Positions 23,277 to 23,573 of a stretch of DNA of 32,562 nt are shown here, one piece after another (the stretch's first letter is position 1; each line of letters opens with the position of its first letter). Source of the DNA: an uncultured Clostridia bacterium (lineage in GTDB: Bacteria > Bacillota > Clostridia > Oscillospirales > Ruminococcaceae); NCBI GenBank assembly GCA_944385325.1, contig CALWWT010000199.1:1-32562 (forward strand), given 5' to 3'. The translations under genes and the position numbers were made by a program. The notes under the pieces were generated by a model. It made no database searches, was not told the DNA's origin, and saw only the letters and a list, made by a program, of their open reading frames with translations.

Positions 23277-23573
23277 AAAGGGAGCAGACCAAAATTACCG
23301 GTTTGCTCCCTTTTTTAGACTGTCAATAAAGTCAATCGCTCGTCCTCTTTTTCCGCCATTGCCCTGTTCCGCATGGGCAATGGCTGCGTTTTATGGAGAA
23401 GTTGCGCGCTTACGCGCGCCCAGGACTCGGTTCGCTGCGCAAACCATCCGTCCTGGACCTGCCAAACTTTTCAAAAAAGTTTCTGCTACATTTTACAACC
23501 TACATATTTTAGTTAATTAGAATTTTTGGCAAGCTCAAGGGAGCAGACCGAATTTACCGGTTTGCTCCCTTTT
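23277..23573 (-). repeat. copy B of the hairpin-rich element (core 23315..23535, inverted relative to copy A) with a 38-nt flanking direct duplication
   Basis: Direct repeats are 23277..23314 and 23536..23573 (36/38 identical; both differences fall in the hairpin loop). The core carries GCCATTGCCC/GGGCAATGGC (23354..83), GCGCGCttacGCGCGC (23403..18), CCAGGAC/GTCCTGG (23419..25 with 23449..55) and GGTTCGCtgcGCAAACC (23428..44). Confidence 0.8.

Follow-up and report, generated by a model that had tools for sequence, protein, structure and literature searches.

Why is a small non-coding repeat bracketed, at two different loci in one stretch of bacterial DNA, by two copies of the terminator hairpin belonging to each locus, and what kind of element leaves a duplication of that kind? 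The stretch analysed here (the window) comprises 32,562 nucleotides of a contig from an uncultured Clostridia bacterium (CALWWT010000199.1), and the element in question is small, non-coding and multi-copy, occurring three times in these 32.5 kb (copies A, B and C) with a size of 204–263 nt. A preliminary description made from the letters of the window had proposed that copies A and B are insertions which duplicated a whole hairpin of the host.

A repeat search across the whole window found copy B between direct repeats of 38 nt at 23278–23315 and 23537–23574, which are identical at 36/38 positions with both mismatches at loop positions (AAAA vs GAAT), and copy A between direct repeats of 39 nt at 15186–15224 and 15488–15526, which are identical at 38/39 positions. 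The same identities, with the differences of the B pair in the loop, had been given in the preliminary description, whose coordinates were exact for the repeats of copy A and one base low for those of copy B (23277–23314 and 23536–23573). The window contains ~1.6e7 position pairs ≤ 500 nt apart and the probability of ≥ 36/38 matches is ~8e−20 per pair, giving an expected number of such repeats by chance of ~1e−12; no comparable repeat was found elsewhere in the window by the same search. The two duplicated sequences are unrelated to each other, in agreement with the earlier reading, and they fold as hairpins of −21.7 and −25.4 kcal/mol (RNA parameters). Both hairpins were also correctly placed between convergent genes, encoding an ABC ATPase and PIN7 at site B and GGDEF and Hsp20 proteins at site A. 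By repeat search and folding, the left target-site duplication of copy B (23278–23315, plus strand) is a bidirectional terminator hairpin in the ABC ATPase–PIN7 interval, where the ABC ATPase gene ends at 23240; it reads AAGGGAGCAGACC-AAAATTACC-GGTTTGCTCCCTTTTT. The right duplication (23537–23574, plus strand) is this left hairpin with the two loop differences, and a terminator-like site is located at 23537–23571.

Other assemblies of the same organism were retrieved by exact-protein look-ups of the flanking genes, and empty sites of the kind which the preliminary description had suggested looking for, with a single hairpin and no insert, were found for both copies. At site A, the flanks in the near-identical metagenome contigs L001–L004 are 100% identical to those of the window and enclose a single hairpin with no element; the window differs from these contigs by exactly 302 nt, that is the 263 nt element plus the 39 nt duplicate; the site is filled in the window and in L005. 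As L001–L004 are empty while L005 and the window are filled, copy A is a very recent insertion which is still polymorphic among near-identical strains. Comparison with the empty site also distinguishes the two duplicates, which were located by the repeat search: that at the left (IRL) end of the element (15488–15526, plus-strand coordinates) has exactly the empty-site sequence (minus strand: GGGCGGACAGTCCGGCATTTTTGCCCGGGCTGCCCGCTT), and that at the right (IRR) end (15186–15224, plus-strand coordinates) has one substitution relative to it (CCTGC on the element-sense strand), which arose after insertion. At site B, the five syntenic loci of a sister lineage (L120–L124), in which the PIN7 protein is 85–87% identical to that of the window, contain the hairpin as a single copy without insert, reading AAAAGGGAGCAGACC-loop-GGTCTGCTCCCTTTTTT. 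Copy B is present in all of the near-identical contigs (L006–L009) and is older than copy A, being fixed in the lineage and carrying two loop substitutions. In none of the relatives are there tandem hairpins lacking the insert, the arrangement which the preliminary description had named as speaking against insertion. Both copies are true insertions, their mobility being demonstrated by empty sites with a single target copy.

The sister-lineage loci differ from the window in a second respect. In L120–L124 (11966–15833), the ABC exporter pair is separated from the ABC ATPase by four genes, encoding a BPD_transp_1 permease, an SBP_bac_3 binding protein, a DUF8330 protein and a sigma-70 factor, and these are missing in the window (22358–22500). 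The orphan ATPase gene left in the window has TTG as its first in-frame start codon and no obvious ribosome-binding site. A different, partial deletion of the same four-gene region was observed in L123.

Copy B occupies 23316–23536 on the plus strand (221 nt), an orientation defined by that of the transposase gene in autonomous relatives, and its inverted repeats are TAGACTGTCAATAAAG on the left (23316–23331) and ...AATTTTTGGCAAGCTC on the right (23521–23536). Copy A occupies 15225–15487 on the minus strand (263 nt), with the ends CAGACTGTCGATAAAATC... / ...TTTTTCGACAAGCTC on that strand. The termini reported earlier, T/CAGACTGTC... at one end and ...CAAGCTC at the other, were thus recovered, and the terminal inverted repeat can be followed over ~16 nt (11/16 positions match in copy A, 9/16 in copy B). 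Copy C (about 17723–17953, minus strand) is old and diverged; it was recognised by a profile search (nhmmer, E = 2e−32) and its ends, although decayed, can still be identified (CAATCTGTATAG... / ...ATTGACAAAGAG). This copy has no flanking duplication and lies between the terminator of an open reading frame at 16434–17639 and the terminator of a tRNA gene at 18011–18083. Its core is bracketed by a long-range stem formed by GTTGGGGTAA (~17737–17746) and TTACCCCAAC (~17903–17912), which was not seen in copies A and B. Further along the window, a near-perfect palindrome at 18226–18272 (23-nt arms, 91% complementary, 1 nt spacer) is found just upstream of a MarR-family gene (18286–18798) and looks like a candidate operator. 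The window encodes no transposase, as had been noted (tblastn, Pfam and the gene content of syntenic loci), and no integrase or reverse transcriptase was found in it. These observations support the earlier reading that the element is a non-autonomous transposon and that its target-site duplication takes in a complete terminator hairpin.

Relatives were sought by scanning genome contigs with the core pattern TTGCGCGC-N3-5-GCGCGCCCAGG, for which chance matches are abundant in GC-rich genomes. At least three true relatives were present among the matches listed, and the element was found in Ca. Faecivivens stercorigallinarum (L058 and L062) and in Ruminococcaceae UBA1448 (L069). Of two scans of metagenome contigs, the first gave no match and the second gave one contig (L107); the six matches to the core among viral contigs were all unrelated, and no match to the MITE was found in plasmids and phages by blastn. 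The preliminary description had proposed that each copy should have its own flanking duplication of similar length. This holds in part: copies A, B and L058 each have their own, different hairpin, that of L058 being shorter (24 nt, AAAGCTCAGCTTCCGCTGAGCTTT), but copy C and L107a have no flanking duplication, L069 has one of only 7 nt (AAAAAGT, with a hairpin 5 nt downstream) and L062 has one of only 11 nt. Copies without a hairpin duplication are probably older or rearranged. L107 has two tandem copies with one hairpin between them, and the hairpins on the two sides of the complete copy differ. This arrangement (1–292, minus strand, with the single separating hairpin CCCCGCGGACAAACCGCGGGG) suggests that the same terminator region was used repeatedly, or that one duplicate was lost. 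The presence of different hairpins beside other copies agrees with the earlier claim that the duplicated sequence belongs to the host and is not part of the element ends. As the duplications of 38, 39 and 24 nt lie on three different hairpins, their length follows the hairpin and not a fixed stagger, and the duplicated segments of A, B and L058 have 0–3 unpaired nt at each end.

Direct repeats around an element which sits immediately downstream of terminator hairpins could also be produced by site-specific integration (attL/attR, with a tyrosine or serine recombinase), and a position of this kind would suit the remnant of a group IIC intron, as group IIC introns also target terminators. Such introns, however, make no target duplication. 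The flanking repeats of A, B and L058 are unrelated and share no common att core, the window has no integrase or reverse transcriptase, no Rfam intron domain was matched, and the empty sites indicate a simple duplication of host sequence, all of which make either origin extremely improbable. The unrelated flanking repeats, the transposon-type inverted repeats and the empty sites were taken to rule out att integration and a group IIC intron, and likewise an IS200/IS605-type PATE and an insert-free tandem duplication of the terminator.

The preliminary description had recommended searching for a longer element with the same termini, and elements with matching termini do exist, encoding IS1182-family DDE transposases. 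The ends of the P0262-type IS (L179–L188) are CAGACTGTCGAAAAAGTCC... / ...TTTTTTCGACAAGCTG and those of the MITE are CAGACTGTCGATAAA... / ...TTTTTCGACAAGCTC, copy A and the P0262-type IS agreeing at 16/18 left-end and 14/16 right-end positions. An element from IMG/VR (L147) has the ends CAGCCTGTCGAAAAAGTCC... / ...TTCTTCGACAAGCTG, to which L069 matches at 17/18 positions of the left end and L107 at 15/16 of the right end. Copy A matches the left end of ISCbo5 at 13/18 positions. The transposases of the end-matched elements score 387–484 bits on the NCBIfam model NF033551 (IS1182 family, cut-off 270), and the ISCbo5 protein on plasmid p3BKT015925, where the ISCbo5 copy starts with CAGGCTGTTGATAAA and is flanked by a 29-nt hairpin duplication, scores 472 bits. 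ENA and Logan assemblies contain relatives of the end-matched transposases in very large numbers, and an Oscillospiraceae MAG has one of them in its annotation. The ISCbo5 transposase reading frame on this plasmid (NC_015418; L108, 35834–37201) is intact at 455 codons and is missing from the PLSDB gene table, so gaps in that table can hide IS elements.

We conclude that the element is very likely a MITE mobilised in trans by an IS1182-family DDE transposase of the ISBma2/ISCno1-like group (CAG.CTGTCGA...TCGACA.GCTG). The IS1182 partner is predicted from end similarity only, and the window read, of 32.5 kb, contains no IS1182 transposase. It should be noted that several observations do not fit this assignment: most copies of the MITE end in ...GCTC where the family has ...GCTG, and copy B starts with T and not C; the interior of the MITE is unlike that of any autonomous element checked (nhmmer); several copies are without a hairpin duplication; and IS1272, itself an IS1182-family element, removes part of the hairpin that it targets. 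The terminal base off the family consensus, the unrelated interior and the lack of a partner transposase in the window could also be expected if the MITE were moved by another long-duplication family, such as IS1634 (the second IS family for which long direct repeats are known), or by an undescribed hairpin-specific recombinase, with the likeness to IS1182 ends being convergent. We regard this as improbable, as the ends agree at 14–17/18 and 12–15/16 fixed terminal positions, far more than chance would give, elements with IS1182-equivalog proteins treat their targets in the same unusual way, and the end-matched transposases score only 20–23 bits on the IS1634 model (cut-off 100).

The duplications made by autonomous IS1182 elements were surveyed by scanning IMG/VR with the transposase alignment, which gave 52 IS1182 loci, of which 23 were delimited by flanking repeats; with the addition of eight others this made a set of 31 insertions. 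Within this set the duplications are 15–40 bp in length (median 24), and in 30 of the 31 insertions the duplicated sequence is a complete hairpin with ≤ 2 unpaired bases at either end. The L147 duplication is 40 bp and those of the P0262-type IS are 22–30 bp. A further autonomous element, P0116 from a Bacillota MAG, has duplications of 14–21 bp, 3/4 of them being clear hairpins; its 14-nt duplication, in which no stem better than a weak one of 5 bp can form, is not part of the set of 31. The 38–39 bp of copies A and B therefore fall within the surveyed range, and the statement in the preliminary description that they are far longer than the duplications of IS and MITE families is wrong for IS1182 (ISBma2 at 18–26 bp, ISCbo5 and the survey at 15–40 bp). 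A hairpin-spanning duplication is a known IS1182 signature, so no new class of element or mechanism needs to be proposed.

An orientation bias was also visible among the surveyed insertions (L110–L188), with an A-rich flank outside the left end in 26/31 and a T-rich flank outside the right end in 22/31. In most insertions, therefore, the transposase gene runs in the same direction as the strand that finds a complete terminator in the distal hairpin copy. The rule also applies to MITE copies A, B and L058.

How a duplication could come to match its hairpin may be pictured as follows. Transposases of this group select palindromic targets, in practice rho-independent terminator hairpins at gene ends, and the duplicated segment is precisely the palindrome. 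Supplied in trans, such a DDE enzyme would join each element end to one of the two strands of the target, the two joints being at opposite bases of the palindrome. The whole hairpin would be copied when the gaps are repaired, giving a duplication as long as the hairpin (15–40 bp) and no fixed stagger. Strand transfer would most probably take place across the base of an extruded cruciform, which would bring the two sites of attack side by side; in B-form DNA these sites would be 15–40 bp apart and out of reach of a compact transpososome, so the cruciform base would explain why the duplication equals the palindrome. Cleavage at a cruciform, which the preliminary description had also proposed, would fit our data. 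After insertion, each of the flanking convergent genes would keep an adjacent hairpin copy, and on the strand which loses most of its U tract (that of PIN7 at site B) transcripts would probably read through the element to the distal hairpin copy.

All copies of the MITE have in common three hairpins, H1 to H3, which make up a conserved core. In copy B the core lies at 23355–23456 on the plus strand (consensus fold; DNA fold z = −8.4) and consists of H1 (23355–23384, GCCATTGCCC...GGGCAATGGC, followed by a T run), H2 (23404–23419, GCGCGC-TTAC-GCGCGC) and H3 (23420–23456, CCAGG...CCTGG, of varying length). In copy C, on the minus strand, H1 is at 17866–17894, H2 at 17831–17845 and H3 at 17794–17830. 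Across all copies H1 has the form GCCATTGCC...GGCAATGGC and is followed by a T run. H3 varies in size, from 18 nt in the Faecivivens copies through 37 nt in copies B and C to 78 nt in copy A, where it spans 15306–15383 and 40 nt of inserted sequence form two further small hairpins. The CCAGG/CCTGG stem of H3 is kept in all copies despite these changes, a pattern which is typical of a tolerated variable stem. Conservation of the core extends over at least four lineages, in contrast to the AT-rich remainder of the element, which diverges. In a consensus fold of seven sequences, H1 has two compensatory changes and H3 has one, which is thin, suggestive evidence for the structure. No match to Rfam 15 was found at the gathering threshold or at E ≤ 10, with only sub-threshold chance matches to terminator hairpins, and a simple scan of the element for promoters gave no consistent candidate.

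The core is absent from all of the autonomous IS1182 elements checked, and a profile of the MITE gave only weak matches to the 52 IS1182 loci (nhmmer, E > 0.5, < 5 bits), mostly at the MITE ends. The MITE is therefore not a simple internal-deletion derivative of the autonomous elements checked. An interior derived from the partner by deletion is a feature of many MITEs, but not of all. The autonomous relatives do have a hairpin of their own: in the first ~45 nt of L179–L188 and L147 there is a terminator-like hairpin with a T run just inside the left inverted repeat (e.g. GTCCAGTTAATACTGGGCTTTTTT), which fits the "mobile attenuators" of ISBma2-type elements (PMC2965389). H1 of the MITE and its T run are in an analogous position.

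The conservation of the core in at least four lineages, its compensatory changes, the T run after H1 and its absence from the autonomous ISs checked could all be accounted for if the element were a host structured-RNA gene or a terminator/insulator module, spread by recombination or retro-insertion, with the hairpins duplicated to supply terminators. This we find very improbable, given the lack of an Rfam match, of a consistent promoter and of a reverse transcriptase in the window, the transposon-type inverted repeats resembling IS1182 ends, and the precise presence or absence of the element with an exact target duplication; such a module could describe the function of a cargo but leaves mobility unexplained. 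Within an element moved by an IS1182-family transposase, the compensatory changes, the conservation and the absence from the autonomous IS1182 elements examined raise the possibility that the core is a functional module and not filler, either forming DNA cruciforms which recruit a structure-recognising IS1182 transposase or delivering a structured RNA or terminator cargo to 3′ UTRs, a suggestion which we make tentatively and consider rather unlikely. If it were true, the element, with its polymorphic copy A, would be a natural and active substrate for testing structure-directed DDE integration at the base of a cruciform, which the hairpin-length duplications imply.

These results describe a family of MITEs, recently active in gut Clostridia of the Oscillospiraceae/Ruminococcaceae type, whose insertion duplicates the terminators of convergent genes and so remodels their 3′ ends. 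The survey of 31 insertions adds that IS1182 duplications equal the target hairpin, at 15–40 bp, and for the purposes of annotation, tandem terminators around a small repeat can be read as an IS1182-type footprint. Experiments on cruciform-directed integration could also start from this finding.

Among known systems, the ISBma2/ISCno1/ISCbo5 group from Burkholderia mallei, Clostridium novyi and C. botulinum group III has ends (CAG.CTG...) which agree with those of the MITE. The direct repeats of ISBma2 are GC-rich hairpins of 18–26 bp flanked by runs of A and T, and its ends are CAGATTGCTGACAAACCC / GGGTTCGTCAGCAGTCTG (PMC2877748), while the hairpins duplicated around ISCbo5 in C. botulinum group III and C. 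novyi are terminators at the ends of genes (PMC3098183); the left end of ISCbo5 is CAGGCTGTTGATAAA, against CAGACTGTCGATAAA in the MITE. The group and the MITE are alike in targeting terminator hairpins at gene ends and in having whole-hairpin repeats of varying length; they differ in that the MITE is ~220–260 bp, has no transposase and has an unrelated three-hairpin interior, and its duplications of 38–39 bp exceed the range reported for ISBma2. The P0262-type IS and L147 have ends nearly identical to those of the MITE and hairpin duplications of 22–40 bp, but are autonomous elements of ~1.5 kb with a transposase of 471–473 aa, are uncharacterised and known from metagenomes, and have a single left-end terminator-like hairpin in contrast to the three-hairpin core.

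IS1272 and TnSha1, IS1182-family elements of staphylococci, target terminator hairpins with deletion of part of the hairpin (PMC4923244, PMC5678879). They resemble the MITE in that their targets are hairpins, mostly terminators, with little primary-sequence specificity; IS1272, however, deletes part of the hairpin and makes no duplication, whereas the MITE duplicates the whole of it. IS1182-derived MITEs have been reported earlier in Methanosarcina (PMC3852290), where the ISMac2-related MITEs of Methanosarcina acetivorans (160–169 bp) are, like ours, non-autonomous and assigned to an IS1182 partner by their inverted repeats. Those elements are archaeal and their direct repeats are 0–4 bp, with no hairpin-spanning duplication reported, in contrast to the duplications of complete terminator hairpins found around the MITE described here.
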